From sequence record OP595145.1: 64,000 nucleotides of DNA. The stretch is one strand, 5' to 3'. Origin of the DNA: Escherichia phage vB_EcoM_DE16. The notes below the pieces were generated by a model, which made no database searches, was not told the origin of the DNA, and saw only the letters and a list, made by a program, of their open reading frames with translations. Shown here piece after piece: positions 13,910-34,253 of this stretch. The number at the start of each line of letters is the position of its first letter. Position 1 is the stretch's first letter. The position numbers and the translations under genes are program-made.

Positions 13910-16507
13910 TCAATGACAGGATGCCCAGGAATTACCCACATCATATCCGGCAGTAAGCTGAACATTAAGATTGTAAAATTCTCCAGCCTTAGTAACAGCT
14001 AAGGCAGCAAGTTCACCTGCCCGACTATAGGCTGTAAACCATCCACCTTTGGGAGATTCATGAATGTTAGCCCAAATTTGCCCTGTCTCTTTTTCCTTAT
14101 TATGCTTCCATTCTTCGACTTTAGCAAGGCATTCTTTATCAATTTTCTTTTGTTCTTCAGGATCGTCTACTTTCTTCCAACCTAATGATTCAGGTGAAAA
14201 CCATTTGAATTCTACAAGGTTACGAGAAACTTCAAGCTGGGCTTCATCGTGGTATGCAATCATTTGTTGCACGAAGTCTTTATTCTTCCAATCATCTTTA
14301 AAGAAGTCAACACTTAGTCCTTCTTCTTCGATCATGTCGTCATAAATAACCATTGCACGTTTAGCACAGATAACCCCACCACTTTGGAACAGAGAGTTAA
14401 GAATCGCGTGAGCAGAACGAGTAGGAACCTTACGACCGTCAATACCCAAAACATATTGTTTACCAGTCTTAACCCAGAAATCGTTTAAACGTTCTTTAAG
14501 ACGCGCCAATGGGAATGCAGCTTCCCAGAAAGCATCGAACACCAATTGACCTGTAAACTTATCGCTACCAATTGTTTTAGCAACCTTGTCGGCTTGTGCA
14601 CCATAGGTAATACCATACTTAACAGATTTAGCAGGACTACGTTCAAATTTACGTCCAATAGTTTCAGTGATACGTTTTGCCATCATTGTGTGAACATCAT
14701 TAGGTTTCTCTAACAACAGGGCGTTACAATACTCGTGTGGCTCCGGCTCGTACCGCCAACAGTAGTGTGATTCAATTTTTGCTTCCAAAGAGTCGAAGTC
14801 GTAGCCGATCTGGAAGTATTTAGGAACCTCCACACCAAACAAGTTACGCATCTCCCATCCAAACAAAGATGTGACACGAGGAATATTAGCTACAGACCTA
14901 TGCTTCATACGCGAGGTTGCAGCATCACATGTAGCGGCTGGGGTAGGAATACGCCCATCCGCCCTTACTGCGGCTAAGAAACCTTTATCGTATTCTTGAT
15001 CTTCTTCATCTTCTTCCCAATCAGCACCGCCACCTAAAATAGAGTTCCTACGATGTTTATACGTTAAGTATTCTACAATCTGTGTAGCATAAGGGAATTT
15101 CTCACCCAAAGCTTGCAGGTTAGGACAGATTTCTTTTTCCTGACCTTTGGTAAAGCATGGGTTAGTCAATACTTTAAGACCGCGACCTTTACCTTTTGCT
15201 ATACGCTCTTGAATCTTCCTTTCCAAAGTTTCCGGTGTGCACTCCAGATGATCACAACGATCCTGACAAAAATTAGAAGATAGAGTTTGCTCAACGTAAG
15301 CTCGAATACCTTTCTGAAGTTCTTCCTCGCTCTTTTTAATCTTGGTGCCAGATTTAAGAGTCAAGTCTTTATCTTTATATTCAGACGGTACCCAACCTAA
15401 TCCTACAAGCCAGTTTTTAATATGGGTAGTATCGTTCAATGTTGCAGGGATGTTAGGATCACACAAAGGCTCATCTGCTGCAACTGGCAGTTTCCACTCT
15501 TTCCCCAACATCACTAACCACCAATCTCCATCCCTCTCTTCCAAATGACCATCATGTTTCTTAGCAAAATTGATCATATGGTTAGTTGGCTCTAAGTTCT
15601 TTTTAATTTGCAACTTAGGTGGAATAAAAGCCTTAAGATAACCTTTTGTTGCTGGTTTAGGTGGCAAAATAGGCTCAACGAGTAAACGAAGACGCTCCAT
15701 TTCTGCATCCAAAAAAGCAAGGTTCTCTTCTGCTTGCTTCATGTTAAAAGCAAACCCACGGTGTTCCTGGCGTGTAATAATGTCTGCTACACGTTGTTCA
15801 AGTTCAAATGGACCTTCCCATTTATCATAATCACCCCATTCTTCCATAAGGTAATTATATACGCTCGTATTGGCTTTGTTGTCATAGATACAGTAATAAA
15901 GCATATCAGCAGCAAAAGTCTTAAATCGATCTTCTTCTGGAATCTCTTTACGGAAATCTATTTTTACATCACCCCCTGCCTTTCGAGAAAGTGCTGCCAA
16001 ACTATGTCCTGATTTGCCTTCAATCTTTCGATCTGGGTTTAACACTTTACTCAAAATCAAGGAGTCAATAAGTTTTACCTTATTTTTGCCCCACGTATTA
16101 TATTTAACACTGTAATCTAAGCCATAAAACAGTTTTGTAGCCAACCAGTCATAGTTGATACCGTTGTGAGCCACAGCCATTTCAACCAGATATTCAGGCT
16201 TATCTTTAAAATAACCTTCATGATTAATAAAGTCTGGGAAATCTTTTAGTTGAAAATGTGTGTAATCTTGCGCCACATACTCTTTAAGAACATATGTGTA
16301 TTTACCATCTGACTCTTCATAAGGACGCCCATCAAAGATGTATTTAGGGCCATCGTGGAAAGCTACTATTTCTCCTGTTTCATGGTTCTCTAAGACAATA
16401 CAGTGCATTTGAAATGTGTCTTTGAGACGATAAGGACTAGCTAAATAATCGATAGTGTCATTATTCAACAATCCGTTTGCTTCAATATCCCATGTAAACT
16501 TACTCAC
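13910..16507 (-). CDS. DNA polymerase, family A, T7 gp5-like, with N-terminal 3'-5' exonuclease
   Basis: 865 aa; N-terminus MSKFTWDIEANGLL mirrors T7 gp5 MIVSDIEANALL (Exo I); motif B-like ERSPAKSVKYGITYG; motif C YHDE; C-terminus ...NSWASCH like T7 ...PNWAICH; GTG start after AGGAGG, overlapping upstream stop (TAGTG). Confidence 0.85.
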   Translation of the reverse strand: MSKFTWDIEANGLLNNDTIDYLASPYRLKDTFQMHCIVLENHETGEIVAFHDGPKYIFDGRPYEESDGKYTYVLKEYVAQDYTHFQLKDFPDFINHEGYFKDKPEYLVEMAVAHNGINYDWLATKLFYGLDYSVKYNTWGKNKVKLIDSLILSKVLNPDRKIEGKSGHSLAALSRKAGGDVKIDFRKEIPEEDRFKTFAADMLYYCIYDNKANTSVYNYLMEEWGDYDKWEGPFELEQRVADIITRQEHRGFAFNMKQAEENLAFLDAEMERLRLLVEPILPPKPATKGYLKAFIPPKLQIKKNLEPTNHMINFAKKHDGHLEERDGDWWLVMLGKEWKLPVAADEPLCDPNIPATLNDTTHIKNWLVGLGWVPSEYKDKDLTLKSGTKIKKSEEELQKGIRAYVEQTLSSNFCQDRCDHLECTPETLERKIQERIAKGKGRGLKVLTNPCFTKGQEKEICPNLQALGEKFPYATQIVEYLTYKHRRNSILGGGADWEEDEEDQEYDKGFLAAVRADGRIPTPAATCDAATSRMKHRSVANIPRVTSLFGWEMRNLFGVEVPKYFQIGYDFDSLEAKIESHYCWRYEPEPHEYCNALLLEKPNDVHTMMAKRITETIGRKFERSPAKSVKYGITYGAQADKVAKTIGSDKFTGQLVFDAFWEAAFPLARLKERLNDFWVKTGKQYVLGIDGRKVPTRSAHAILNSLFQSGGVICAKRAMVIYDDMIEEEGLSVDFFKDDWKNKDFVQQMIAYHDEAQLEVSRNLVEFKWFSPESLGWKKVDDPEEQKKIDKECLAKVEEWKHNKEKETGQIWANIHESPKGGWFTAYSRAGELAALAVTKAGEFYNLNVQLTAGYDVGNSWASCH

Positions 16508-17301
16508 TATTCCTCCTTTCTAATGTTCTCCAGAACCCACTGAAGTTCTTTTAAACTTAAACTTCTTACTCCCGCAGTTTTACTAGCTTCAGCTTTAAGT
16601 AACGGGTAAGCCTCAATGATACGCGTTTTAAGATCAGAAGTCAAGGCTTTTAAAAAATAGGTAGATGCTTCAGATAAAGAATCTTCTTCTGATAACACTT
16701 TACCTGCACTTGCTCCCGCTCTCCTAACGGCTATATCGTAGTCTTTACTGTTACCTAATACGAATAGTCGATTCTCTCCTAAAACAACGGGAGAACGCTT
16801 CTCGTTGCGTTTAATCCATATCTGGAATACACAAGGAACATCCCAAGGTTCTCCATGAAGAATAAAAGATCCTTTTGGACATTCTTCTTCGTAAAGAAGA
16901 TGCATATGGGGATTTAGTTTGTGTGCAAAAAAGATTTTTTGAAATGTGCGAGGCAAGATAAAACAAATACCACCTTCGTTATCCAGCATTTCAGCACAAT
17001 GGTTAAAGAATTTAATGGCAAGACTAGCATTTTTTCCAAATGGAGGATTACCGACAAAAGCAGTTACACTACCAACAGACTCAACAGATTGAGCTAAAAA
17101 ATCTGCCTCAATACAATCTTCAAACTTAGGGTCAATATCAAAAGAAGTTATGTTTTTAAAACAAGAAGAGAAAGCTCCTTCTCCCGCAGATGGTTCTACG
17201 TAGTTAGCTTCCTCTCCAAAAATTTCTTTGATCTTATCACATAAGAACCCCGCATAAGCGGGGTTAGTGTAATATTGATCAAGTGTGTTCAACTTGCTCA
17301 A
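16507..17301 (-). CDS. N6-adenine DNA methyltransferase-like protein
   Basis: 264 aa; motif I-like VEPSAGEGAF then motif IV GNPPFG; TTG start after AAGGAGG; stop overlaps polymerase start. Confidence 0.6.
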   Translation of the reverse strand: MSKLNTLDQYYTNPAYAGFLCDKIKEIFGEEANYVEPSAGEGAFSSCFKNITSFDIDPKFEDCIEADFLAQSVESVGSVTAFVGNPPFGKNASLAIKFFNHCAEMLDNEGGICFILPRTFQKIFFAHKLNPHMHLLYEEECPKGSFILHGEPWDVPCVFQIWIKRNEKRSPVVLGENRLFVLGNSKDYDIAVRRAGASAGKVLSEEDSLSEASTYFLKALTSDLKTRIIEAYPLLKAEASKTAGVRSLSLKELQWVLENIRKEE

Positions 17302-17811: not shown

Positions 17812-17837
17812 TTTTAATAAAAGGGCCGAAGCCCTTA
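17812..17837 (-). terminator. rho-independent terminator after primase-helicase gene
   Basis: AAGGGC-CGAA-GCCCTT hairpin followed on the minus strand by TTTTATTAAAAAT; includes the stop codon. Confidence 0.6.
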
Positions 17838-19613
17838 ATAGTTGCTATCCGTAGGCAAATTAGCAGGATTGTTGAAATACTGCTCTTTGTCATGCAGAGT
17901 TGCAGTTCTAATGTCATAGTAAAACTGCCCTGCTGGACCAGTCTCTGAGAACTCACGGTTTTTTAGGATAAAGCAATGAGTCGTATTTCGTTCTACAGGG
18001 TCTTCAGCGGCTTTATCTCGTTCCAAAGCCAAGGTAATACCAGCACCTTTAGCCAAGAAACTACTACCCATTGCATCGTCCTCTGTTAAGTGTTCATTGC
18101 CACCATTAGCCGATTTCTTAACGTGTGAGATGACAATAATAGTTATAGCATACTCTTTCATGATGCGCTTCAACCATGTTGCTAACTCTTCCTGGGCTTG
18201 AACATCCATACCAGAAAGCAAATCAGAATAAGGGTCGATAACAAGAATTGTTACTCCAAAATAGATGATCATCTCCAAAACTTTTTCTTTGATAGACTCC
18301 ACATCTGCTCCACGATCATCACACACATAAAAACGTGGTGATCCATCTTCTCTTTCGTAAAAATCTAGGATTTTTTCTTTATTCTCTTCCAAGATTTGAA
18401 ATTTCTCTTCCGGTGTTTTCCTATGTAGAGGAATGTGCAGGAAAGAGGACAACAGGTTACGAGAATATTTCTTATAGGTTGCTTCCAATGACAGAATACC
18501 GAGGGTATGTTCTGGGTGTGCAACAATAATATGTTTGGTGATCTCGTTCACCATCAAAGTTTTACCGATACTGGTCTTTGCCAGGATGACTGTAATCTCT
18601 TCCTCTACTAAACCACCACCCAGCATATTTGCAGCAACACGCATAAAAGGAGGCAAGGTAATCATCTTGGATTCCAAACATTCTAATGCAGCTTCATACA
18701 AGACATTAGAAGCATAAACACCTGCTGGGGTGTATAGACGAGCACTCCAAAAAGCTTTTACGAAATCCTTTGCACGACCTTCTTCCAGATACTGATTGGC
18801 ATCCTTAAGATCCATCTGCATACGGTAGACTTTGTTACGAGGCAGCACCTTAACAATATTTTCAAATGCCTCATTACCCGCTTTGTCATTATCCATGCAA
18901 ACAATAATCTTCTTAAATTTTTCAAAGAAAGGATATTGTGCCTGAACTTGTTTATACATACTGGTTTCACCAGTTGTGCCACTTACTACTGCTGGAAGCT
19001 CATATTTGTTGTCCAAGTTTTCAGACAGCATTTGATAAGCTGCCAGAGCATCGTGTTCACCACCTGTAATTACCACAGTATGAGAACGATCTGCAAAACG
19101 AATTTGTCCAAAAAGATCTACATCTTTACCTACTTGACCAATAGGTTTACTGAAATCTTTAGGATGAATACGACGCTTAAAACCAACCAATTCTTTACCG
19201 ATGGTAGTCGGATATAAACAACTTTCTACTACCATCTGATCCCCTTCCTGACGGTATTCATAACGAACACCATAGAAAGATGAAACTTTTTCTTTAATGC
19301 CTCGATAACCACGTGGGTTGGTTGATGTTTCTTGAACAATTTTACGATGAATCTGTTTATTAAATTCCGAACCCACAATCTCCTCCTCTTCTTCTAAAAC
19401 TTCACCATTTTCTCGTAACCATTCTACGCTAGGAATAGTGTATTCACACGCAAAGCACTTAGCACCTTTATGCTCTCCATTAGAATCTAATCCATAAACC
19501 ATCAGGTTATTACGAGAGCGATCCTTGCCATTTTTCATGCAGCGCGGACAACCTGTATGCCCTTCCTTGCTAAGATCAACATCAAATCCATATTTAGTTA
19601 TAATGTGCGACAC
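17835..19613 (-). CDS. bifunctional DNA primase/helicase, T7 gp4-like
   Basis: 592 aa; N-terminal Cys4 zinc ribbon (CPRC...CFAC); TOPRIM-like GGEHDALAAYQ; DnaB-type helicase Walker A AKTSIGKT; GTG start after AGGAGAA. Confidence 0.8.
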   Translation of the reverse strand: MSHIITKYGFDVDLSKEGHTGCPRCMKNGKDRSRNNLMVYGLDSNGEHKGAKCFACEYTIPSVEWLRENGEVLEEEEEIVGSEFNKQIHRKIVQETSTNPRGYRGIKEKVSSFYGVRYEYRQEGDQMVVESCLYPTTIGKELVGFKRRIHPKDFSKPIGQVGKDVDLFGQIRFADRSHTVVITGGEHDALAAYQMLSENLDNKYELPAVVSGTTGETSMYKQVQAQYPFFEKFKKIIVCMDNDKAGNEAFENIVKVLPRNKVYRMQMDLKDANQYLEEGRAKDFVKAFWSARLYTPAGVYASNVLYEAALECLESKMITLPPFMRVAANMLGGGLVEEEITVILAKTSIGKTLMVNEITKHIIVAHPEHTLGILSLEATYKKYSRNLLSSFLHIPLHRKTPEEKFQILEENKEKILDFYEREDGSPRFYVCDDRGADVESIKEKVLEMIIYFGVTILVIDPYSDLLSGMDVQAQEELATWLKRIMKEYAITIIVISHVKKSANGGNEHLTEDDAMGSSFLAKGAGITLALERDKAAEDPVERNTTHCFILKNREFSETGPAGQFYYDIRTATLHDKEQYFNNPANLPTDSNY

Positions 19614-19625
19614 TTTGTTCTCCTG

Positions 19626-19904
19626 TTAAAATGGTTCGTTAGTCTCCATCATATATTCTGCTTCTAGTTCTTCCATGTGCTTTCTAAATTGGAAAGCAAT
19701 TTCTGCTACAGTTACATTTAAATCTTTTTCAAAAACTTCTGTAGAGCCTTCGTAAAAACGAATACCGTCAATTAAAAGCCCTCCGTGGTAATCCCAATCA
19801 CTTTCACGAGAAAGCGGGTTAGGCTCTTCATAATAGTAATCCACCTCCACGACTAAGGCTTTCCCGTTACGAGTGGTGTATTCAAAATCAAAAGTGTTAA
19901 TCAT
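19626..19904 (-). CDS. hypothetical protein
   Basis: 92 aa; ATG overlaps upstream stop. Confidence 0.4.
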   Translation of the reverse strand: MINTFDFEYTTRNGKALVVEVDYYYEEPNPLSRESDWDYHGGLLIDGIRFYEGSTEVFEKDLNVTVAEIAFQFRKHMEELEAEYMMETNEPF

Positions 19905-20848
19905 TATAGCTCCTCAAATAAAAGTCTACGACGCTCATTCAACACATCAATGTGATAATGAGTCCTGACATACTTAGCTAATGCTAATCCTTTCTCCATG
20001 CAAACATCGGGAGCACTTAATAAGTATTCCGTAATATCTTTCCACTCGGAAGGTGTTTCAGCAAAGAATAACAGATCTTTAAACTCTTGTGTATGATAAT
20101 TCTCACGAGGAGAACAAATCAAAGGTAAACCCTTAGCACCTGCCTCAAGAATTTTAAGATTGCTTTTTGCATTATTAAACACGTTATCAATCAATGGCGC
20201 AAGACTGACTTGATGACCATCGTAAGATTCCATGTAGTTGGCATATGGTCTTACACCTTCATAAACACAAGTTGGTGCTACATTTTCTCTGATTACAGAC
20301 CATTCACGACTACTTAAAACTTCAGAATCCCTACGAAAACCACATATTGTAAGATCTTTACCAAAATCGGGCAAGATAGCCAAATCTTGTTTATGTGTTT
20401 CACTTCCAGCCCAGACTAATGGAGTTTTGGAGTAGCGATCACGGGTCAACACAAATTGACCTTCATCGTAAGGAAGTCCATTAGGGATTATGTGCACATT
20501 ATCATTGTATTGTGAAAGTTCAACTTGCAAGGCAGGTGTCGTAGTTGTAACAAGGTCACTGTGCTCTAAAAACCATTTTAAATGTTCACGAATACCTGAT
20601 TCAAAAATACCTTCTAACATGTGTCCTTTTGGAATAACTAAAGAGTCATCCAAATCCATAACCATTTTAAAGCCTAGGTTTTTAAGGGCTAAAAAGCCCT
20701 CTTTACCTTTTGTTGGCACTCCGTTAAAAACGAAAACGTTGTGTTTAGGTTGTGAAGAGAACTGCCTTGAGTAAGGCAGCACTACCCTATGGAAATCGCA
20801 GACACTATAATTGATTCCGTTACGATTGTCAAGAATTATTTGTCCCAT
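19904..20848 (-). CDS. glycosyltransferase-like protein (paralog 1 of a tandem pair)
   Basis: 314 aa; shares CDFHRV, NN-x-KSNLKILEAGAKG-x-P and VRTHY blocks with the next gene. Confidence 0.5.
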   Translation of the reverse strand: MGQIILDNRNGINYSVCDFHRVVLPYSRQFSSQPKHNVFVFNGVPTKGKEGFLALKNLGFKMVMDLDDSLVIPKGHMLEGIFESGIREHLKWFLEHSDLVTTTTPALQVELSQYNDNVHIIPNGLPYDEGQFVLTRDRYSKTPLVWAGSETHKQDLAILPDFGKDLTICGFRRDSEVLSSREWSVIRENVAPTCVYEGVRPYANYMESYDGHQVSLAPLIDNVFNNAKSNLKILEAGAKGLPLICSPRENYHTQEFKDLLFFAETPSEWKDITEYLLSAPDVCMEKGLALAKYVRTHYHIDVLNERRRLLFEEL

Positions 20849-20855
20849 ACTTCAC

Positions 20856-21803
20856 CTACAAACTTTCAATAACCTGGCGTCGCAATTCGTTTGCATCTGC
20901 CAGATTATAATGTGTTCGAACATGTTCAGCCAAGAACAAGCCACGATCTTCCCGATAGTTTGGATTGCGAAGAAGCTTAACAATTTCGTAATGCCATTCT
21001 GCTTTATTCTCTGCGTAAGCAACAGCACGAGCATCTACAGGGTTAAAATAAGGTAACACCTTAGAACAAACAATCGGAATACCTTTTGCCCCAGCTTCCA
21101 GGATTTTGAGATTACTTTTGCAATTATTAAAATCATTATCTACCAAAGGAGCTATAGCAATAGCATGACTTTCGTAAACACTCATGTAATTATCTAAATC
21201 TTTTACAGCAGCTTTATATTTAGCGTTTGGTAAATTTCTGCGAATCTTAATCCACTCTTGTCCCGTGATGCTCTGTGATGCTTCATATCCCGCAATAGTA
21301 AGAAGTTCATCATCGAAAGTATTAGAGACTAGTCGTAAGTCGGGTTCGTGACTAGCACCGCCAGCCCATACAACAGGGGTACCGGATGAACGATCATTTG
21401 ACAAAGTGAATTGTCCACTATCAAAAGGAAGTGCATTTCGGATCACAACAACATTCCTATTTAAGTGACGGATCTTATATGCCAAGTATTCCGTAGTCAC
21501 AATAACCACATCAGCAAGCTTAACCATAGCCACAATAGCATGAGTGTTTGACTCGTATAAACTTGCCAAATAATGCTCTGGATTAAGTTGGTAAAAATCA
21601 TCTAAGTCTACAACAATCTTAACACCTTGACGTTTCAAAGATAAAACGTATTCTGCACCTTTAGAGTGGATACGGTTAAACACAACAACATCTTTCTTAG
21701 GTTGAATATTACTGTTGTTAAATGGTATAACAATACGATGATAGTCACAACCGCTGTGAGGTTTTGCATCAATTTTTAGTTTAGACCATTTTTTATTTGA
21801 CAT
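20856..21803 (-). CDS. glycosyltransferase-like protein (paralog 2 of a tandem pair)
   Basis: 315 aa; colinear similarity to 19904..20848 over the whole length (CDYHRI, NNCKSNLKILEAGAKGIPIV, HVRTHY). Confidence 0.5.
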   Translation of the reverse strand: MSNKKWSKLKIDAKPHSGCDYHRIVIPFNNSNIQPKKDVVVFNRIHSKGAEYVLSLKRQGVKIVVDLDDFYQLNPEHYLASLYESNTHAIVAMVKLADVVIVTTEYLAYKIRHLNRNVVVIRNALPFDSGQFTLSNDRSSGTPVVWAGGASHEPDLRLVSNTFDDELLTIAGYEASQSITGQEWIKIRRNLPNAKYKAAVKDLDNYMSVYESHAIAIAPLVDNDFNNCKSNLKILEAGAKGIPIVCSKVLPYFNPVDARAVAYAENKAEWHYEIVKLLRNPNYREDRGLFLAEHVRTHYNLADANELRRQVIESL

Positions 21804-22476
21804 GTGCTAGTGCCTCCTCATAGGAAATTCGGATTTTCCCATTTTTAATATCCTCTAAAGATGCTTTATATTCTTCCCAGTTAATCCCAATAGCAGCTTC
21901 TTTCTCTTCTTTTGTCAGGTTAGCAAAAGGCATAGGATTGTTTCCAAAAACATCGTCTGGGTGGATATAAGCCATGATACGAAGTGGACAAGGTGTTGCC
22001 TGAATACCATGATTCAAACCAGCAGCTTGCAAACGGTGTCCCCATTCAGCATCTTCAAAACCATAACCGTGAGTGTAAGGACGGAAATAACCCATCTTCT
22101 CAACAACGGCACGAGAATACATTGCAAATTGACACATTGCAAGTTCCCAGAGAATAACTTCTCCTTTGCTTCCAACAACTTTATCTTTGAAATACTCCGG
22201 CATACCAAAGAAATCCCATCCTCCAGAAACAGCCTGATCTACAAAGTATGTTTCCCATCCTTCCATGACTGGGTAGCAATCATCGTCAAAAATAAACCAA
22301 TAATCATAACCTTCTTCATAAAACTGGTGCATAAGTTCATTCCTGGCATAAGCTACACCTTTACGATCTGGATCGTTGAATACTCGAAAATCTGCACGTG
22401 GATCTGTTACAAGGTAGTCTTTAAGTGGACGGACACCTACAGTGATAACACCCACTCCGATTTTAATATTTTCCAT
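21793..22476 (-). CDS. glycosyltransferase, GT-A fold-like (DxD)
   Basis: 227 aa; GVAYARNELM...WFIFDDDCYP resembles a nucleotide-sugar transferase DxD region. Confidence 0.45.
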   Translation of the reverse strand: MENIKIGVGVITVGVRPLKDYLVTDPRADFRVFNDPDRKGVAYARNELMHQFYEEGYDYWFIFDDDCYPVMEGWETYFVDQAVSGGWDFFGMPEYFKDKVVGSKGEVILWELAMCQFAMYSRAVVEKMGYFRPYTHGYGFEDAEWGHRLQAAGLNHGIQATPCPLRIMAYIHPDDVFGNNPMPFANLTKEEKEAAIGINWEEYKASLEDIKNGKIRISYEEALAHVK

Positions 22477-22484
22477 TATCTCTC

Positions 22485-23048
22485 CTAAATAGTTTTACTG
22501 TGATCGTGACAGTGTAATAAATGATGTATAGACCGTTGAGGATTTGTTTGACCTAATCTGTAAATGTGGAACAGATACATTCCCCGCATCAATCCTAACC
22601 TTTTTCCTTTTTCGTGTAAAGTGCGAGAGAAAATTAAGTCAAATTGAATAGATTTTTCTTCGAAAGGAATTTCATTCCATAGTGATTTCCTAAAAAGCAA
22701 AAAGAAACCTGCCAGAGGTGTTCCGAAAGGAACTTCTTCAACACTCACTTTATGATATTCTCTTGCAATCTTAGCATATTCTATATGGTTTAGAATATCT
22801 GGATCATCGTTAATTTGGTTAGAGAAAAGCTGATAACCACTGCCTAACCTGTTACAAGTTGCACCTATTACATCAAAAGGCGGGTTTGACATAACAAGCT
22901 CTTCAAGCATAGATGGTTGATCAGGTAGGAGGAACATTGTATCGGTATCTCTTAAACACACCCAACTATCATCTGGAAGAACGGCAATGGCTTCATTGAT
23001 AGCCTTGCCGATATTTCCTGTCAGATAGGGAGTAATATAATAAATCAT
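22485..23048 (-). CDS. putative glycosyltransferase-like protein (DxD-type)
   Basis: 187 aa; WVCLRDTDTMF D-x-D-like motif; weak assignment. Confidence 0.3.
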   Translation of the reverse strand: MIYYITPYLTGNIGKAINEAIAVLPDDSWVCLRDTDTMFLLPDQPSMLEELVMSNPPFDVIGATCNRLGSGYQLFSNQINDDPDILNHIEYAKIAREYHKVSVEEVPFGTPLAGFFLLFRKSLWNEIPFEEKSIQFDLIFSRTLHEKGKRLGLMRGMYLFHIYRLGQTNPQRSIHHLLHCHDHSKTI

Positions 23049-23064
23049 TCTCCCCTCCGTTATA

Positions 23065-23256
23065 TTAACTGTCGGCTACAATCCCACGTTTAATCATTTC
23101 TTGTTGAATCTGGATCACACGATCTCGTGCTTCCATATATTCTTTAAAAGATTCTTGAAGATGGTCACGAGCTACGTCTCGTAGCTTAATCAGTTTGTCG
23201 TTTGTCACTTCTTGAAGAGAGATTTCGCCAGTTTCATTGGTCCCAAGCGTTTTCAT
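23065..23256 (-). CDS. hypothetical protein
   Basis: 63 aa charged helical ORF. Confidence 0.35.
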   Translation of the reverse strand: MKTLGTNETGEISLQEVTNDKLIKLRDVARDHLQESFKEYMEARDRVIQIQQEMIKRGIVADS

Positions 23257-23464
23257 TTACAACCTCCTTAATAGCTACTGCACAGTTCTTACAAATACAT
23301 TGACCTTTGTTCTTAGAAATTTCAATGTAAGGTTCATTTTCGTTTTCTCCGCGTCGTGAGTCGTATATTACTGTATTGAAGCAGACAACGCAAATGTTTT
23401 TAATAACGACATATTTTTGCACTTTCTGTTTAGTGCGAAAATTGACTTCAATGACTTCTCCCAT
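23234..23464 (-). CDS. small zinc-ribbon protein
   Basis: Track ORF trimmed to internal ATG (MGEVIEV...) with GGGGAG RBS and ATGA overlap with upstream stop; CVVC...CKNC. Confidence 0.35.
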   Translation of the reverse strand: MGEVIEVNFRTKQKVQKYVVIKNICVVCFNTVIYDSRRGENENEPYIEISKNKGQCICKNCAVAIKEVVNENAWDQ

Positions 23465-23749: not shown

Positions 23750-24271
23750 TTAACTCCCCTTTGGTAGATAGAAACCATGCACTTTATCTCGATAAACAAG
23801 ACGCATATCACGTTCCCAGTGTGTCCTTATATTCCGTTTCTTGAAGTATAGAGCACCTTTAGTAACATCTAAAACAGACCGCAATTCAGGAAAATGTTTC
23901 TCTAAATAAAGTAAACGCTCCGCTATTGCTTTTGCTTCCTGCCATTTATCTTTTTCTGTTACGTTAAAAGTTTTCGCATATGAGAATTGCCCTTTCTGGA
24001 ACAAAACTCCTCTGACTGTGTTAGGGAAGTAGGTATCATTTCTTCTGTTGATTACCACATTCCCAACGGCATTCATTCCTTTTTTACCCAGACCGCGACC
24101 TTCTGCGTAAATTGCACAAGCTAATAGAATTTTATCATTATATTGCTTTGTACATTTGTGAACTACTTTAGCGGTTTTTACGTTTGCAGCTTCGGCTTTC
24201 GCCACAACAGGTGTAAATGTAAAAGCAGTTAAGGATAGTAACGCAACTGTTACAAAGTTTTTTATCAGCAA
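23750..24271 (-). CDS. endolysin, SleB/CwlJ-type cell wall hydrolase with N-terminal signal peptide
   Basis: 173 aa; signal-like LLIKNFVTVALLSLTAFTFTPVVAKA; core LACAIYAEGRG...VGNVVINRRNDTYFPNTVRGVLFQKGQFS; TTG start after AAGGAGG. Confidence 0.6.
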   Translation of the reverse strand: MLIKNFVTVALLSLTAFTFTPVVAKAEAANVKTAKVVHKCTKQYNDKILLACAIYAEGRGLGKKGMNAVGNVVINRRNDTYFPNTVRGVLFQKGQFSYAKTFNVTEKDKWQEAKAIAERLLYLEKHFPELRSVLDVTKGALYFKKRNIRTHWERDMRLVYRDKVHGFYLPKGS

Positions 24272-24370: not shown

Positions 24371-24973
24371 TTATGGACATTCATACCATTCTTTTTTACC
24401 ACCGAAGGCCATCACCACATCACAAATATCCAGACCAGCTTTACCTACACCATATGCTTTCAGCTTCCATTCTCCATCTTCACGAACCAAGGAAGCCACG
24501 TGGCAGATTGTGTTGCCAGCTACTTCAGGAGCCAGGAAGTCAAAATCCAGAATTTCCACATTGCGCTCGGAGTCGAAGATTTTAAGCATACCTTCAGAAG
24601 CATGACCAAAACGTTTCAGACCTGTATCATCATCAATGGTCAGAACAAAGGCAATCTCTTGTGCATCAGGAGAGATTTTAGCCAGAGTAATATCAATCTG
24701 CTCCATGCTGCCAGTTCCATCACGAACATCATCACCAGCGAAGGTAGAACGTTCAGGATCAAACTTGTTAGCATAGCAAACCAGATGACGTGCAGACAGC
24801 ATTTCAGGATTGCCAGCGGCATTGTGACGACAAACCAGTGCACTTACATCCAGGTCCAGTTTAGAATCAGATTTCCAAGAGAATTCCAGGCGCAGTTCTT
24901 TCAGAGCCGGAGCAACTTTCTTCAGGGAAATTTTTTCGCTAGAGCCTTTTTTCAGGGAAATTTTATCAGTCAT
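24371..24973 (-). CDS. terD: TerD-family protein
   Basis: 200 aa; N-terminal KISLKKGSSEKISLKK repeat, LDLDVSALV, GDDVRDGTGS, EIAFVLTIDD and GEWKLKAYGVG match the bacterial TerD pattern. Confidence 0.75.
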   Translation of the reverse strand: MTDKISLKKGSSEKISLKKVAPALKELRLEFSWKSDSKLDLDVSALVCRHNAAGNPEMLSARHLVCYANKFDPERSTFAGDDVRDGTGSMEQIDITLAKISPDAQEIAFVLTIDDDTGLKRFGHASEGMLKIFDSERNVEILDFDFLAPEVAGNTICHVASLVREDGEWKLKAYGVGKAGLDICDVVMAFGGKKEWYECP

Positions 24974-24988
24974 CTTTTGTCTCCTCTA

Positions 24989-25258
24989 TTATTTAAGTGT
25001 AATACCAGTTACAGTCAATTCTACTTCCAAAAGCTTAGATGTGTTTTGGATTGATACTAATTGTGCATGATGGTTTAGTTCTACAGCAGAATAATCATTC
25101 TCCCCATCATCTACTTTTAAATAAACAATAACTTCACTAAGGTCTAAACCATTTTCGTCAAATGCAGTTTCATAGACGAAAGTATCTCCTACATCCAAAT
25201 CTTTAATGGTAAGGCATCGTTTATTTACTTTTTGCTCATCAATTTCGAAGTTTAACAC
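24989..25258 (-). CDS. hypothetical protein (paralog A, C-terminus ...LEVELTVTGITLK)
   Basis: 89 aa; GTG start after AGGAGG; directly upstream of terD; paralog of 26280..26558. Confidence 0.4.
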   Translation of the reverse strand: MLNFEIDEQKVNKRCLTIKDLDVGDTFVYETAFDENGLDLSEVIVYLKVDDGENDYSAVELNHHAQLVSIQNTSKLLEVELTVTGITLK

Positions 25259-25487
25259 TTCTTCCTCCTAATGTTATCTCCGGTTTGTATATACGAAGAA
25301 TTATAGCATTTTCATTTTCTTTGTCAACCCATTCTTCATAATCGGGCCATACATGAATCTCTACTCTATTCGCAATATCTTCCATCCGCACAGTCCCAAT
25401 GAAATACTCTTTGAGACTGCGCATAATGAAAGCTTCTCTCTCGCGCCAATAATTTTCTACGACTTGAGAGGCAAGCTCGTCGATCAT
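25239..25487 (-). CDS. hypothetical protein
   Basis: 82 aa; ATGA overlap with upstream stop. Confidence 0.35.
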   Translation of the reverse strand: MIDELASQVVENYWREREAFIMRSLKEYFIGTVRMEDIANRVEIHVWPDYEEWVDKENENAIILRIYKPEITLGGRSVKLRN

Positions 25488-26278
25488 TTTTTAGCACCTA
25501 CTTTAACAACCCACTCTCCGAACTCTTCAGATAAGAGTTTGTCATAAAGCTCTGAATCTGTCAAGTCTAAATCTTTAATGCCAATAAAACCAACATTATC
25601 ATAAGCATTTGCCAGTTCTTTCAGGAAGCCAAACTTCTCATTACCAACGCCAACCATGAACCAATAGATAGGCTTATTCTTATTTTCTTCAATAAGACGA
25701 CGAACAGCACTAGGATCACCATTCTCACCATCTGTCTGGAAGAATACAACACCAGGGGTAACGTCAGCACCTGGTTCAGATACAGCTACAACCTTTTCAC
25801 GCTCTACAGACACTGTTTCAGTTTTACCAAGCAGACGATTAAAGAAGCCTTTCTTTGGAGCCTCCTCTTGTACCACTTGTTTAGTGGTAATATATTTGGT
25901 AACAGTGCCAAAATACTCATCGTAGATATCTGCCATTACAGGGGCGTAATTTGTTCCACCTCCGATACGAACATTACGCATACATTTACCAACATAGTCA
26001 TCGTAAACGTCTGCTGTTGCTGGAGTAAGCTCTTGAGAACTCGTATTGAAGGCCCACATGTCAATTTGTTCATTATCGTCGAACAGCATACCAAAAGGAA
26101 GCAGTTTACCTACAAAATCACTCACTACCCCACGAGCATATAGACTATGCATACTACCAGAAATATCTAGAGCACATGCTACACGAAGAACAATCTTACC
26201 TTCATTCAGGTTCTTATTCTTTTTCAGAGAGAAAGCAAGGTTTTCTTGACGTTTTTTCAGGCTGATTTTCTCGGACAT
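25484..26278 (-). CDS. von Willebrand factor A (vWA) domain protein with TerD-like N-terminal repeat (TerY-like)
   Basis: 264 aa; N-terminal MSEKISLKKRQENLAFSLKK; MIDAS motif ALDISGSM. Confidence 0.65.
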   Translation of the reverse strand: MSEKISLKKRQENLAFSLKKNKNLNEGKIVLRVACALDISGSMHSLYARGVVSDFVGKLLPFGMLFDDNEQIDMWAFNTSSQELTPATADVYDDYVGKCMRNVRIGGGTNYAPVMADIYDEYFGTVTKYITTKQVVQEEAPKKGFFNRLLGKTETVSVEREKVVAVSEPGADVTPGVVFFQTDGENGDPSAVRRLIEENKNKPIYWFMVGVGNEKFGFLKELANAYDNVGFIGIKDLDLTDSELYDKLLSEEFGEWVVKVGAKK

Positions 26279-26279
26279 A

Positions 26280-26558
26280 TTATTTCTCCTTCTTAAGTGT
26301 AATGTTGGTAACTTCTAAATCTACTTCCACCATATTTGTATCTGGTGGGATACAATGAGTATAGCCTCGTTGTGCTAGTGATCCATTAATACAAATCGCA
26401 CTGTTTGTGGAATTTTTAATGAACACCAAGTTACGGTAGGTATCCAACCCTGCGTCTTCATAGGCATCATAATACATGAATGTGGCCCCTATGCCAAGAT
26501 CTTCGAAAGCAATAGGCAAATCCTGACACTTTTCTTCTTGAATATTGAATCTAAACAC
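26280..26558 (-). CDS. hypothetical protein (paralog B, C-terminus ...VEVDLEVTNITLKKEK)
   Basis: Track ORF trimmed to GTG preceded by GAGGAGG; colinear with paralog A; directly upstream of the vWA gene. Confidence 0.35.
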   Translation of the reverse strand: MFRFNIQEEKCQDLPIAFEDLGIGATFMYYDAYEDAGLDTYRNLVFIKNSTNSAICINGSLAQRGYTHCIPPDTNMVEVDLEVTNITLKKEK

Positions 26559-27114
26559 GCATACCTCCTCTACCAATTTTGAAGCCCAAATCGTAAGCTT
26601 CCTTAGTGATCTTTTGTAACTCACTTATAGGAAGTGTTACAAGAGGATCATCTTCTTCAATTTCCATCTTGTCATCTTCTGTTTCAATGAGAGTATTATG
26701 CACTTTGTGATAAGGGTTGTCAACACGTTTAAACTTATTCTTTTCTGTGCTGAAAAAACAATCTGGATCTTCTTCACCATCACCCCAACCTTGGTTAGGA
26801 TCTCCGTCAGATTGTTCTGTAGGGATTTCACCTGTAAAGTACTCTTCCAGCACCATAGCAATACCGTCCCTTGGATTTGAGGAATGCATTAAATCACAAA
26901 CCTTACCCCAATCCATAGCCCATTCGAACCGTTCACGAACGCCATTTTCATCCTCCTTTCCAGAGAAAACACAACCATAACTATCATAGTTGCCATACAT
27001 CTCTTCAATAACAACACCATCCTTCAAAAGAAAGAGATAACAAGGTGATCCGTCGAAAGAAGTAGAAAGGGCAGCTTTGCCAGATTCCTTACACAAAAAA
27101 CTAAAACAACCCAT
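26551..27114 (-). CDS. hypothetical protein
   Basis: 187 aa; acidic, Cys-containing; ATG start. Confidence 0.4.
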   Translation of the reverse strand: MGCFSFLCKESGKAALSTSFDGSPCYLFLLKDGVVIEEMYGNYDSYGCVFSGKEDENGVRERFEWAMDWGKVCDLMHSSNPRDGIAMVLEEYFTGEIPTEQSDGDPNQGWGDGEEDPDCFFSTEKNKFKRVDNPYHKVHNTLIETEDDKMEIEEDDPLVTLPISELQKITKEAYDLGFKIGRGGMRV

Positions 27115-27317
27115 TACAAACCCTCCTTCAGATTATCAAGAGCTACAGTGGTTTCACAAAAGTCTCCATACGTTTTATGATGTTCCAGAAAAGCTTCGGG
27201 TCCACCCCAATCATTATCTTGTGTATTCCAGCCATCAATAAAAGCATCTTCAATGATTGTGATCAGTTCTTGTCGGGTTAACTGGATAATATCAGGATCG
27301 TTATCGTAGTTAAACAT
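27114..27317 (-). CDS. hypothetical protein
   Basis: 67 aa; start overlaps upstream stop. Confidence 0.35.
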   Translation of the reverse strand: MFNYDNDPDIIQLTRQELITIIEDAFIDGWNTQDNDWGGPEAFLEHHKTYGDFCETTVALDNLKEGL

Positions 27318-27483
27318 CTTCTTCCTCCTCTAAAATATGAAACCCGTAATTACAATAGTCCTGAAATGTTTCGTGTGCAAGATCTTCTATATCCTCTTGA
27401 GACATATCATCTTCAATTTCGATATCCACAACCTCATTGCATCCACACCAAGCAGTTTCAATATTCACTCGTAATATTTTCAT
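27310..27483 (-). CDS. hypothetical small acidic protein (57 aa), not in supplied ORF track
   Basis: AGGAGGAATA RBS plus ATG overlapping upstream stop; hand translation MKILRVNIETAWCGCNEVVDIEIEDD...; coordinates approximate. Confidence 0.3.
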   Translation of the reverse strand: MKILRVNIETAWCGCNEVVDIEIEDDMSQEDIEDLAHETFQDYCNYGFHILEEEEDV

Positions 27484-27680
27484 TATTCCTCCTCCTCGTT
27501 GAAGTCGATATCTGCAAGTAGTTGGAATTTACGGAAGTTACGACAACCTTCATAAATATAACAATCACGACAAACTGCTAGAACACTTGGGGGATATATG
27601 CCTCCCATCGGTGCGAATCGTTTTTCGTCATCATAACGGACACCAATGTCTTCATCAATTATATAGATACGGATTCTCAT
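27483..27680 (-). CDS. hypothetical Cys-containing small protein
   Basis: 65 aa; ATGA overlap with the TelA-like gene. Confidence 0.35.
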   Translation of the reverse strand: MRIRIYIIDEDIGVRYDDEKRFAPMGGIYPPSVLAVCRDCYIYEGCRNFRKFQLLADIDFNEEEE

Positions 27681-28789
27681 TTACCAAGCCCTCGTTTCAC
27701 AGCAGCTACCATCCCGTCTTCCAGAGATTGAACTTCATTAATATAATCAACACGAGCAGCACGGGCTTCCGTATTGATGCGGTTAGTTTCTTCCAACATC
27801 TTAACCAAGTTTTCCTGATCGTGACGCAGAGTTTCAATATCCAACACTTGACGGTTAGCCAGTGCTGCTGCTTCGATCTGATTCTGTGTGGCAAGATCGC
27901 TACCCAGTTTAATTGCCAGGTTAAATTCGTCAAGAACGTTATTCTGCGTCTCTGCTGCTTTCATTTGACGTAAGCTCTCGATATACATGGAGAAGTTAGC
28001 AGAGTAAGCAGGAATAACATTATTTACTATGTTACGCGCAGATCGCATTAAGCTTGCAGAAACTTTTTGCATACCTTGTACACGCGGTCCCATTTGGACA
28101 CACAGTAGGCGCAATGCTTTTAAATCTGCAATACGAATCTCCAGAAGATCCAAAGTATCTCGGATCACTTGTCGCTGTTCTACTGCATCTTCTGGAAGAG
28201 CAGCCAAAGCTTGTTCTTCTTTTTCATAGGTTGCTGTTAGAAGCTGCATATCTCGGTTCAAACTTGCAGCATATTGTCCAATAGCTTGATGTAGCTTTTC
28301 AAGATATACCAAGGAATCTTCTTCTTTGCGAATATCCATTTGAAGGTTCTTTACCAACTCTTCAATACGGTTATTAACATTATCAAACTCCCCAAACAGG
28401 TCTTCTTTCATACCCATAACTTTTTTAATGAGTTTAGTAATACCCTTGCTTTGTTTAATAGAGTTTGGATCAAGTTGTTTTGCCTGTTTAATCAAAGCTG
28501 TGAGTCGTTCACTCATCTGATCACCTTGATTACTACGTTGATGTTTTAATACCTCGGCATTCAAGGAACGCAAGGTTGTTCCTGCCTCTGCCCCGATTTC
28601 TTCGATTTCTTGCCTGGTCATAGAAGGCAAAGCTGGTACTTCTTGCGGTGCGGCTGGTGCATAAACAGGACTGGCATCTAACACGCTTGGAGCGAATACA
28701 GATTTACTGGCATCTGTTGTTGCAGCAAATACGCTCATTTCAGGCTTCTTCTGACCACCAGTAGCTGCTTTTAAAAATGGACTTGTCAT
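27677..28789 (-). CDS. TelA/KlaA-like toxic-anion-resistance family protein (predicted all-helical)
   Basis: 370 aa, helical/coiled-coil composition, size and neighbourhood (TerD, vWA, TerC) fit TelA; no sharp motif. Confidence 0.45.
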   Translation of the reverse strand: MTSPFLKAATGGQKKPEMSVFAATTDASKSVFAPSVLDASPVYAPAAPQEVPALPSMTRQEIEEIGAEAGTTLRSLNAEVLKHQRSNQGDQMSERLTALIKQAKQLDPNSIKQSKGITKLIKKVMGMKEDLFGEFDNVNNRIEELVKNLQMDIRKEEDSLVYLEKLHQAIGQYAASLNRDMQLLTATYEKEEQALAALPEDAVEQRQVIRDTLDLLEIRIADLKALRLLCVQMGPRVQGMQKVSASLMRSARNIVNNVIPAYSANFSMYIESLRQMKAAETQNNVLDEFNLAIKLGSDLATQNQIEAAALANRQVLDIETLRHDQENLVKMLEETNRINTEARAARVDYINEVQSLEDGMVAAVKRGLGK

Positions 28790-29376
28790 TCTTCATTCTC
28801 CTCTTCTGCATCTCTTATATATGGTGAAACACCGTACTCTTTAGCTACTTTAACCCAATCGTCCCATTTATACAACCATAATTTTCCTTCTGTCCCTTCT
28901 TTATCTGATTTCAACCACATATTAGGTTGCTTACCTGGGTACATGCGATTAGGTTTACGATTATAACCTCTAACACATCTTGTCGCAAACCTATCTACCA
29001 GAACAAGAACATATTTATATTCGTGGTTCAACGGCTCTTTGGAAGTGGCTTTAGGATTAGCCCCTAATTCTGCTGCCAGTTTTTGCCAATGAGCACCGTG
29101 CCTACTAAACTTACCCATACAACCATCAATAGCATGAGCAATTTCGTGCTTCATTGTATCTACGATCATATCTCTTGTGGAGTTCTTATGCAAGTGCCAA
29201 TTTACAACAACAATTTTATCTCGGTAGTTGCACCAACCGAAAGAGTTATTCACTTTGTTTCTAACACAAGCTTTATATCCTGCTTCACGTAACATGTTGT
29301 AGTAAACAGGAAAATCTTCTTTTATTTCCTGCATCACTTCCCACCACAAGAGTTGCAAGTCTCTCTCGGTATGCAT
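28786..29376 (-). CDS. SprT-like zinc metalloprotease domain protein
   Basis: 196 aa; HEIAH (HExxH) followed by GKFSRHGAHW. Confidence 0.5.
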   Translation of the reverse strand: MHTERDLQLLWWEVMQEIKEDFPVYYNMLREAGYKACVRNKVNNSFGWCNYRDKIVVVNWHLHKNSTRDMIVDTMKHEIAHAIDGCMGKFSRHGAHWQKLAAELGANPKATSKEPLNHEYKYVLVLVDRFATRCVRGYNRKPNRMYPGKQPNMWLKSDKEGTEGKLWLYKWDDWVKVAKEYGVSPYIRDAEEENEE

Positions 29377-29379
29377 AAC

Positions 29380-29973
29380 TTACACCTTAAAAGCGAAATG
29401 TGTGGTCGTGGCTTCAAAATCAGGGCCAGATAAACTTGCACTGAAATCTGAAATATTTGTAATTAAAAAGCTTTTATGCATACCTAACACAGCCACGCTT
29501 TCAATATCTTCTACTAACATTTCAATCATGTTAGAAACATGGCTGAACGTATAGTTTTGTTTTTTGATGGTGTAGAAAGAAAGACTCCCACCTGCTGTAT
29601 AAGATACCTCTTCAAAATCTTTAATCGTATATTGTGTGCCATCAGTAAAGAAAATGGTAGCTTTATTAGTAGCACGTTTCTTGTTTTTTGGTCCTTTTTT
29701 ACGTTTACTGCGAGTAGGCAAACCATTTGGAAATACCGTAGCTACAAATTCTTCAGGAGAAACCTCCTTACCGAAATCATAACCGTAAGAAACAGCGTCT
29801 ATAAACTCGTCGTCTTCATTTTTAAAATAATGAAAATAGGGCCAATTTGAGAGATTATCGAGCATCTTGTGCTCATCCACAGCAGAGAACGTATCCCTCA
29901 AAGCACGTGTGATTTGCAAAGCATTAGGCAAACTTTTAACACCTGTAATGGAAGTACGAATAGAAATTGTCAT
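29380..29973 (-). CDS. hypothetical protein
   Basis: 197 aa ORF with ATG start. Confidence 0.4.
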   Translation of the reverse strand: MTISIRTSITGVKSLPNALQITRALRDTFSAVDEHKMLDNLSNWPYFHYFKNEDDEFIDAVSYGYDFGKEVSPEEFVATVFPNGLPTRSKRKKGPKNKKRATNKATIFFTDGTQYTIKDFEEVSYTAGGSLSFYTIKKQNYTFSHVSNMIEMLVEDIESVAVLGMHKSFLITNISDFSASLSGPDFEATTTHFAFKV

Positions 29974-29987
29974 TGTTTTTCTCCTTA

Positions 29988-30425: not shown

Positions 30426-30612
30426 ATTTGCTTTCCTCGTTTTGGCTATTAATACATCTGTGTTTGAAATCTCCAGAGAAGCAATAAAGTTGCTCTCCAT
30501 CTCGGTATAAACTCACTTTACTGCCGTTGATTATGCTTGTCAATACAAAAATTACAACAAACAACCCTATTGCAAAACAGATATTTTCAAACACAACCAA
30601 CAAGTATTTCAT
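30367..30612 (-). CDS. small membrane protein whose 3' end overlaps the lipoprotein gene
   Basis: 81 aa; N-terminal TM helix; ATGA coupling to upstream gene; 59-nt out-of-frame overlap with lipoprotein start. Confidence 0.35.
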   Translation of the reverse strand: MKYLLVVFENICFAIGLFVVIFVLTSIINGSKVSLYRDGEQLYCFSGDFKHRCINSQNEESKYEKTSPDFNWLYLFNSLRG

Positions 30613-30959: not shown

Positions 30960-31001
30960 AAGTCTCTCCTATAAAATAGCCTCCCGAAGGAGGCTCATCT
31001 A

Positions 31002-31976: not shown

Positions 31977-32055
31977 TCTTTTCTCCTCTCTTTGCGGGGA
32001 ACTATTCCCCGCTTCATGTGATATATCTTACTCTTTTTAAGAACTATGTCAACAC

Positions 32056-32277: not shown

Positions 32278-32289
32278 ACTAATCTCCTC

Positions 32290-32763: not shown

Positions 32764-32775
32764 TTTAGCTCCTTA

Positions 32776-34252: not shown

Positions 34253-34253
34253 A

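Follow-up and report, generated by a model that had tools for sequence, protein, structure and literature searches.

A candidate virion protein O-glycosylation cassette of four glycosyltransferase genes in Escherichia phage vB_EcoM_DE16

Escherichia phage vB_EcoM_DE16 (sequence record OP595145.1) carries four consecutive glycosyltransferase (GT) genes at positions 19904-23048 of the 64,000-nucleotide stretch of DNA analysed here, which is referred to below as the window. We put at about one half the probability that these genes form a cassette for O-glycosylation of virion surface proteins, in which a short glycan containing deoxyhexose is built on Thr/Ser residues at their C-termini, a prediction that is computational. 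The window comes from a phAPEC8-like myovirus (Phapecoctavirus, Stephanstirmvirinae), its region 19600-23300 being 98-99% identical to 64 deposited genomes. The genes are already known and annotated, RefSeq records labelling all four "glycosyltransferase"; it is the proposed function that would extend recently discovered phage virion glycosylation to Gram-negative phages. More tentatively, and with the odds still somewhat against it, we propose that the cassette represents a large and hitherto unrecognised virion O-glycosylation system of Gram-negative phages, in which a mobile module of three enzyme families would act on a C-terminal Thr-Thr (often Pro-Thr-Thr) tag on the major capsid protein, the major tail protein and some fibres, giving a 6-deoxyhexose-containing coat, so that coliphages of the phAPEC8 and phi92 groups, which are in wide therapeutic use, would be glycoprotein particles.

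Beginning with the first gene of the block, the genes, all on the minus strand, are named here GT4 (22485-23048; 187 amino acids, aa), a predicted minimal GT-A enzyme with a DxD motif (D34-T-D36); GT3 (21793-22476; 227 aa), a predicted GT-A enzyme with an invariant F-D-D-D motif; GT2 (20856-21803; 315 aa), GT-B paralog 1, assigned to a CAZy GT4-like group; and GT1 (19904-20848; 314 aa), GT-B paralog 2 and a tandem duplicate of GT2. The name GT4 is distinct from the CAZy family GT4. The products of the four genes, two distinct GT-A enzymes and a pair of GT-B paralogs, are soluble enzymes of the cytoplasm; no membrane segments were found in the four proteins, and three of the four are net acidic. 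Their intergenic spacing is operon-like, with an 8-nt gap between GT4 and GT3, an 11-nt overlap of GT3 with the start of GT2, a 7-nt gap between GT2 and GT1 and then a 1-nt overlap with the next open reading frame (ORF). A terminator scan of the minus strand found none inside the block, promoter and terminator scans being uninformative overall.

During the lytic cycle the enzymes would assemble a short oligosaccharide, one sugar per enzyme, with the duplicated GT-B adding a fourth sugar or making a second linkage, and the glycan would be attached to Thr/Ser at the extreme C-terminus of abundant particle-surface proteins. In siphovirus-type carriers the acceptors would be major capsid and major tail proteins ending in …(P)TT. 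The best candidate acceptors in this phage would be two proteins whose genes lie outside the window, the major capsid protein (…KLTTA) and the head decoration protein (…VVFTS), together with the tail fibre of 3382-6435 (…VPTT). At least one donor would be a 6-deoxyhexose nucleotide, dTDP-L-rhamnose made by the phage rmlBACD genes or by the host, and the resulting glycan coat might shield or alter the particle surface, by analogy with mycobacteriophages. According to the accounts of Freeman 2023 given in PMC12619734, PMC12363180 and PMC11256854, mycobacteriophages (Che8 gp108-110, Corndog gp38 and Myrna being examples) use GTs of their own to attach glycans to capsid and tail-tube subunits at the C-termini, and the glycans shield the particle from antibodies.

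Phapecoctavirus and Justusliebigvirus phages rank among the coliphages of broad host range that are isolated most often, and therapy cocktails commonly contain them. If the prediction is true, a glycan coat on these particles would have consequences for antibody recognition, serum half-life, stability and perhaps adsorption, as has been reported for mycobacteriophages with glycosylated particles. The predicted tag comprises only 2-3 C-terminal residues and is therefore directly testable and usable for capsid glyco-engineering.

Distribution of the module and the C-termini of capsid and tail proteins

Locus arrangements were derived from six-frame hidden Markov model (HMM) mapping, in which a3, a4 and B denote GT3-like, GT4-like and GT-B genes. 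With the GT-B profile, a scan of IMG/VR gave 578 or more viral matches, and in 41 loci (window counted) the GT-B gene is adjacent to GT3-like and/or GT4-like genes. The arrangements included a3-B (11 loci), a4-a3-B (8 loci), a3-B-a4 (7 loci), a4-a3-B-B (6 loci, window included), a4-B-B (3 loci), B-a4 (2 loci) and B-a3 (1 locus); B alone was found in 50 loci, mostly of a more distant branch with 31-35% identity. The carriers span 150-kb myoviruses to 40-kb prophages, and "bacterial" GT2 homologs proved to be prophage genes. The GT4-like, GT3-like and GT-B genes thus constitute a module moving between unrelated phages. All four genes are kept in Phapecoctavirus and Justusliebigvirus, and some Klebsiella relatives carry a single GT-B gene; the GT1/GT2 duplication is present in the two former genera and not in the Klebsiella relatives listed. 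Three loci in IMG/VR (L016-L018), with a GT-B 73% identical to that of the window, carry a GT4-like gene followed by two GT-B genes and no GT3-like gene, and GT3 is therefore dispensable in some close relatives.

In many carriers the module lies beside virion morphogenesis genes, either next to terminase or directly after the capsid gene, and in the window it lies beside a primase-helicase gene. Three gene orders were seen in small phages: holin - GTs - terminase - portal - capsid; endolysin - dehydratase - GTs - terminase - capsid; and terminase - portal - prohead protease - major capsid - (GT3-like, GT-B, GT4-like) - head completion - … - tape measure. Prophage GT3 homologs, 38-43% identical to GT3, always lie just upstream of a GT-B homolog. 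The GT3 homologs of Pseudomonas silvicola and Enterobacter huaxiensis prophages (43% and 38% identical) overlap the GT2 homolog just upstream of terminase/capsid genes, and a dTDP-glucose-4,6-dehydratase-like gene and a GT4-like gene stand beside the pair in the Enterobacter prophage. Another large phage (L009) mirrors the window, with the order dehydratase-like - GT3-like - GT-B - small ORF - primase-helicase - polymerase.

By comparison of the predicted proteins, a C-terminal TT or PTT on capsid and major tail proteins appears to track the full module in four divergent lineages. For the L029-type capsid, 79 complete homologs were compared: the six that come with the module all end in …APTT, …VATT or …TQAT, and none of the 73 module-less homologs ends in TT, most ending in …TP or …AP. 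In the L007 lineage, which has an unrelated protease-capsid fusion, both module-bearing capsids end in TTT or PTT (…ANTTT and …ANPTT), against 0/42 TT ends in capsid homologs without the full module; when both capsid lineages are pooled, a Thr-Thr end occurs in none of 115 homologs that lack the full module. The capsid and major tail termini in module-bearing phages include …AAPTT, …THPTT, …ANPTT, …ANTTT, …LEPTT, …GEATT and …TWTTT. The TT-ending capsids fall into four groups with mutual identity of at most 31%, and the TT-ending tail proteins also form four groups.

The count was extended to all called ORFs of at least 80 aa, with module loci compared to control loci by Fisher test. TT termini were found in 11 of 549 ORFs in module loci and in 7 of 1702 in control loci (p 9.5e-4), and PTT termini in 5/549 and 0/1702, respectively (p 8.5e-4). 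The 11 TT-ending ORFs consist of four major capsid proteins, four major tail proteins, one head-closure protein and two that could not be assigned. The signature is confined to loci with a GT4-like gene. It was seen again in loci retrieved independently through the GT4-like family, in head (…FTITT) and tail (…TPVTT) proteins of L235 and in a head protein (…TLETT) of L233; the GT4-like profile is narrow, and this replication set comprises only four new lineages, two of them with a visible capsid gene.

A different substrate, the host envelope, was also considered. It is possible, although we consider it unlikely, that the enzymes extend or alter a lipid-linked glycan during infection (lipopolysaccharide (LPS) core/O-antigen, enterobacterial common antigen, colanic acid or capsule); the outcome could be a block to superinfection or less adsorption of progeny to debris and, in prophages, serotype conversion. 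In lambdoid phages the interval between lysis and terminase genes is a known site of lysogenic-conversion genes, rhamnose is common in O-antigens, and PHROGs places all three families in the class "moron, auxiliary metabolic gene and host takeover". PglA, TarM and PimB, which are CAZy GT4-like GT-B enzymes, act on lipid-linked or wall glycans. The receptors of these phages are enterobacterial common antigen and LPS, and the phages carry many glycan-degrading fibres (PMC8594841). Envelope remodelling, however, is hard to reconcile with the absence of membrane segments from the GT proteins and of a flippase, polymerase or Gtr-type partner from any context examined, or with the presence of the module in strictly lytic 150-kb phages. 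Furthermore, the prophage GT genes are co-directional with late genes and often overlap them, no flanking promoter- or terminator-like sites being found in L040, and the association of capsid and tail …TT termini with the full module would be left unexplained.

Enzyme families, candidate acceptors and sugar donors

An earlier note on this DNA had described the four genes as a run of glycosyltransferase-like ORFs that includes a tandem paralog pair, two GT-B-like proteins being followed by two DxD-type GT-A-like proteins, and this description was borne out. The ORFs lie at the positions given above, and GT1 and GT2 are identical at 124 of 303 positions (41%; E 2e-77). The motifs that it quoted, CD(F/Y)HR, NNxKSNLKILEAGAKGxP, (Y/H)VRTHY, FIFDDDCYP and CLRDTDTMF, were all found, and at most of their positions the family alignments show no variation. 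The division into GT-B and GT-A enzymes agrees with the structural models of GT2 and GT4 and, for GT3, with profile matches and the DDD motif.

GT2 matches phrog_7162 (E 1.3e-148), and its AlphaFold model (pLDDT 95.5) gave 306 Foldseek matches in the Protein Data Bank (PDB) at E<=1e-3, the best being CAZy GT4-family enzymes: sucrose-phosphate synthase, PglA, BshA, MshA, TarM, SdgB and GtfC (E ~1e-9, TM 0.55-0.65). GT1 matches the same family (E 3e-145) and, as a member of the family alignment, retains all of its invariant columns. The model thus predicts a two-Rossmann GT-B fold for the paralogs. By profile they form a divergent branch of the Pfam GT1/GT4 clan: the two paralogs score 24.2 and 20.4 bits against Glyco_trans_1_2 (cut-off 25) and 22.8 and 14.1 bits against Glyco_trans_1_4 (cut-off 27), and some homologs do pass. 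The GT-B family is large, with 789 representatives of 50%-identity clusters at E<=1e-30.

For GT4, which matches phrog_14179 (E 8.5e-113) and has no Pfam match, the AlphaFold model (pLDDT 92.7) compared with the PDB by Foldseek points to a minimal GT-A fold with a conserved DxD, D34 and D36 being invariant in the family alignment. The best match is the catalytic domain of polypeptide GalNAc-T2 (E 4e-4, TM 0.52), and further fold matches are RmlT, COLGALT1 and SpsA. GT3 matches phrog_2456 (E 1.2e-78) and phrog_1579 (5.9e-13), and its Pfam matches to TAGT, Glyco_transf_7C and GT2 are weak and all under the cut-off; its assignment as a putative GT-A enzyme comes from the profile matches and from D64-D65-D66, which are invariant in the family alignment. 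When sequence profiles of the three families were compared with PDB chains, only chance-level matches appeared.

Protein O-glycosyltransferases are included among the best fold matches, namely ppGalNAc-T2 for GT4 and SdgB and GtfC for GT-B. The best GT-B matches also include small-molecule enzymes (sucrose-phosphate synthase, BshA, MshA, GlgM, SenB and tetrahydrobiopterin glucosyltransferase), and a soluble acceptor other than a virion protein was considered: a free oligosaccharide or glycoside, a small metabolite such as a product of the Ter/PRTase cluster, or a host or non-structural phage protein. We regard this as improbable, more so than remodelling of the envelope. The BASEL annotation "putative disaccharide synthase" fits such an acceptor, as does the TerD/TelA/TerC/PRTase cluster located 1.3 kb upstream of the block, and homologs in Burkholderia and Trinickia beside an invasin/intimin-type adhesin gene hint at glycosylation of a non-virion protein there. 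On the other hand, three GT families in series fit the building of an oligosaccharide on a defined acceptor better than disaccharide synthesis, and a soluble acceptor leaves the association of TT termini with capsid and tail proteins unexplained. The Ter cluster occurs together with the module only in Stephanstirmvirinae-type loci and not in other carriers, and it was rejected as the source of an acceptor metabolite because it does not travel with the module outside the subfamily.

The chromosomal GT-B homologs mentioned above, in Burkholderia dolosa (L006 3025-8440) and Trinickia symbiotica (L012 4742-11026), are 41-45% identical and are preceded by a gene for an inverse autotransporter of the invasin/intimin type and by one for a protein of 555-571 aa with no known function; the region may be an adhesin-glycosylation locus.

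With virion proteins as the acceptors, the structural proteins of the window offer a single PTT end, that of the 1017-aa lateral tail fibre/colanidase-like protein (3382-6435, plus strand). The candidate acceptor site of this fibre is a C-terminal extension (…RPTPVVDVPTT), homologs outside Phapecoctavirus and its close relative phiWec190 ceasing to align 26-35 residues earlier. The fibre terminus was rejected as a subfamily-wide acceptor, the tail being specific to Phapecoctavirus and phiWec190. The ends of the capsid protein (…ELVVKLTTA) and of the decoration protein (…EKVVFTS) are kept in both genera with the GT genes, Phapecoctavirus and Justusliebigvirus; in rV5, which has no GT block, the corresponding ends are …KVTLKNGG and …QTLGEE. 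The sheath protein of Justusliebigvirus (PaulScherrer, L239 10170-11576) has a C-terminus 11 residues longer and Ser-rich (…NSQNSNSSTVSS), which the Phapecoctavirus ortholog (…LTNRTAN) is without, and this tail may be another lineage-specific acceptor.

As to the sugar donor, a complete RmlB/A/C/D set is encoded in the genome outside the window, all four proteins scoring above the equivalog cut-offs, and the module of L007 and that of L009 each have a dTDP-glucose-4,6-dehydratase-like gene beside them. These genes, and RmlT among the fold matches of GT4, make dTDP-L-rhamnose a candidate donor on circumstantial grounds, and virion glycosylation offers a role for the puzzling dTDP-rhamnose pathway in these genomes. 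Phage ESCO37 retains the four GT genes, and its rmlA and rmlB are absent; host sugar pools can therefore probably substitute.

Several results count against glycosylation of virion proteins. The fold matches to protein glycosyltransferases are no better than those to small-molecule or lipid-linked GTs, and a literature search yielded no functional glycosylation study and no glycosylated virions for Phapecoctavirus, Stephanstirmvirinae or phi92. No TT termini were found in the two-gene E217-like lineages, which have GT3-like and GT-B genes only, and three major tail proteins from control loci do end in TT, although the module may lie beyond the DNA covered there. Module-bearing members within each capsid lineage are closely related, so that the independent events number about four and the raw counts overstate them. 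In this phage itself the capsid ends in TTA and not in TT, the GT block is part of the replication module, with about 40 kb between it and the capsid gene, and the PTT tail of the fibre is not found in Justusliebigvirus, the Justusliebigvirus and Seunavirus homologs ending in …VTVNNA and …VYSERT. GT3 resembles Che8 gp108 only weakly (23% identity over 147 aa, pairwise E 8e-4) and does not match gp109 or gp110, and GT1, GT2 and GT4 have no match to the Che8 GTs.

Position beside replication genes and DNA as a possible substrate

The block is flanked by the primase-helicase gene (17835-19613) and by the gene of an SleB-type cell-wall hydrolase (23750-24271), as the earlier note had it in placing the genes between the primase-helicase and a lysis gene. 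From that position it had drawn a parallel to the glycosylation of DNA bases in phage T4, while sensibly leaving the substrate open. The parallel did not hold up, in that the same module is found elsewhere between lysis genes and terminase or directly after the major capsid gene. The enzymes might still act as T4 Agt/Bgt do and protect the phage DNA against nucleases, by adding rhamnose or other sugars to a base that is hydroxylated or hydroxymethylated, and we consider this very improbable.

The neighbourhood is suggestive of such a role, the primase-helicase, a DNA polymerase and an adenine-methyltransferase-like gene being next to the block, and rhamnosylation of hydroxymethylated nucleotides has been suggested by Olsen et al. 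2020 (PMC7552041). GT3 has weak matches to a TET-associated GT family (E 1e-3) and to the PHROG of beta-glucosyl-HMC alpha-glucosyltransferase (E 7.6e-6), each covering about 37 residues around the DxD. The likeness to T4 Agt/Bgt extends to phage-encoded GT-B enzymes in, for the window, a replication-type neighbourhood. It ends there: no Pfam match to the T4 alpha- and beta-glucosyltransferase families was obtained at E<=0.1, and among the structural matches of the GT-B model T4 Agt/Bgt appear neither in the top 50 from the PDB nor in the top 50 from viruses (BFVD), so that neither sequence similarity nor preferential structural similarity is seen.

Nor is a hydroxy(methyl)pyrimidine synthase annotated. 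The complete, ~98% identical genome of phage tuntematon has no annotated ThyA-type hydroxymethylase and no TET/5mYOX gene, a result based on annotation and not on an exhaustive profile scan. The only gene of thymidylate-synthase type in the genome is a ThyX-like one outside the window (tuntematon 115302-116300; L003 43403-44401), annotated "FAD-dependent thymidylate synthase", with a partial alignment to ThyX and a divergent score of 31 bits against an equivalog cut-off of 88. The gene is found in more than 1000 phages, among them the GT-less FV3 (Vequintavirus), PAK_P1-like phages and ICP1; because its distribution does not follow that of the GT block, it was rejected as a hidden base-modifying enzyme. 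In the small prophages that have the module, no base-modifying gene lies close to it.

Published restriction data also speak against glycosylated DNA. HincII cut the DNA of five Phapecoctavirus and three Justusliebigvirus isolates, which were typed by restriction fragment length polymorphism, and three T-even isolates resisted (PMC10269720). The phi92-like phages of the BASEL collection were described as "exceptionally susceptible" to restriction-modification "despite a putative dTDP glycosylation machinery" (PMC8594841), and these phages carry the same four genes, as seen in PaulScherrer. The genes of known DNA GTs occur in clusters with ThyS or 5mYOX genes, and known DNA GTs of the GT-B type match T4 beta-GT (Pyle et al., bioRxiv 10.1101/2023.12.21.572611); the cassette shows neither feature. 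The net acidic charge of three of the four GT proteins also argues against DNA as the substrate. Glycosyltransferases near replication genes are thus not necessarily DNA-modifying, which corrects a tempting annotation habit.

Two small conserved ORFs on the minus strand adjoin the block, and each may be part of the module. The 63-aa ORF directly upstream (23065-23256) matches phrog_5932, and 67-aa homologs lie directly upstream of the GT4-like gene in eight large-phage loci, including the distant L009, L021 and L022. The 92-aa ORF directly downstream (19626-19904) matches phrog_4240; its homologs lie directly downstream of GT-B genes in six loci, and L009 has an 85-aa ORF in that position.

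Other features of the neighbourhood were recorded. Between the DNA polymerase and primase-helicase region is the gene of a 264-aa protein (16507-17301, minus strand), labelled in RefSeq "putative DNA N6-adenine methyltransferase", whose similarity to adenine methyltransferases is only weak (phrog_5172; Eco57I-like E 0.017). The DNA polymerase of PaulScherrer (L239 41715-45029) is annotated with an intein, which the polymerase of the window (13910-16507) is without. Just upstream of the lysis gene lies the Ter-type cluster (24371-34859), a "tellurite-resistance-like" stress/metabolite system within a lytic phage, with TerD (24371-24973), vWA-TerF-like (25484-26278), TelA (27677-28789), SprT-like (28786-29376), TerC (31002-31976) and ComF-like PRTase_3 (32776-33603) genes, all on the minus strand, and unannotated ORFs interspersed. 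Within the co-directional gene run, at 25327-25300 (minus strand), there is a promoter-like sequence in full agreement with the sigma-70 consensus (TTGACA and TATAAT separated by 16 nt, plus an upstream TG), and another, agreeing at 11 of 12 positions, falls within the beginning of GT1 (20832-20804). The GC skew is above zero over 1-10 kb, below zero over 12-46 kb and above zero again beyond 46 kb, and it tracks the transcription blocks: plus-strand tail fibres, minus-strand replication and metabolism genes, and then a plus-strand block.

Comparison with known glycosylation systems

The mycobacteriophage systems resemble the cassette in having several phage-encoded GTs in a row and a short C-terminal motif common to capsid and tail proteins, which is GS in Che8 (capsid …FNKTGS, major tail protein …QYSDGS) and TT in the module carriers. 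At the level of the enzymes, tblastn with GT3 retrieved 327 Mycobacterium phage records (~E 1e-8, residues 26-155), cluster F GTs being distantly similar. HMMs built from alignments of close homologs do not detect the Che8 glycosyltransferases, so the link to Che8 depends on weak BLAST and tblastn similarity. The two systems differ in that the module is found in phages of Gram-negative hosts, has a different enzyme set (GT-B and GT4-like proteins without detectable Che8 counterparts), is linked to dTDP-6-deoxyhexose synthesis and would use Thr-Thr instead of Gly-Ser as the acceptor.

In a separate group of IMG/VR loci (L172, L173, L177, L189 and L191), which have a lone GT3-like gene within 10 kb and no full module, the capsid homologs end in …GSGQGS, …SSGQTS, …VTAGS or …AIGS, which recalls the C-terminal GS of Che8. 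The capsids of L174-L176 and L178 have similar ends, yet no GT was detected there.

With CAZy GT4-type GT-B enzymes such as SdgB (a protein O-GlcNAc transferase), GtfC, PglA, BshA, MshA and TarM, the GT1/GT2 paralogs would have in common the overall two-Rossmann fold and, as we read the alignment, a LEAGAKG-P segment resembling the nucleotide-sugar-binding loop of that family. Unlike those enzymes they contain an invariant N-terminal C-D-x-H-R motif specific to their own family, and they are short (~315 aa), score below the Pfam gathering cut-offs and have no PDB relative by sequence profile.

Virus-encoded cytoplasmic GT-A enzymes, as predicted here, are also found in the chlorovirus PBCV-1, where they (e.g., A064R) build a rhamnose-containing glycan on the major capsid protein; PBCV-1 differs in being a eukaryotic virus whose capsid glycans are N-linked at internal sites. 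The Gtr systems (GtrABC) are likewise phage-borne GTs in prophages of Enterobacteriaceae. They consist of membrane proteins that are expressed in the lysogen and encoded near the attachment site, whereas the GTs of the cassette are soluble, are encoded within late or replication operons and are also present in strictly lytic phages.

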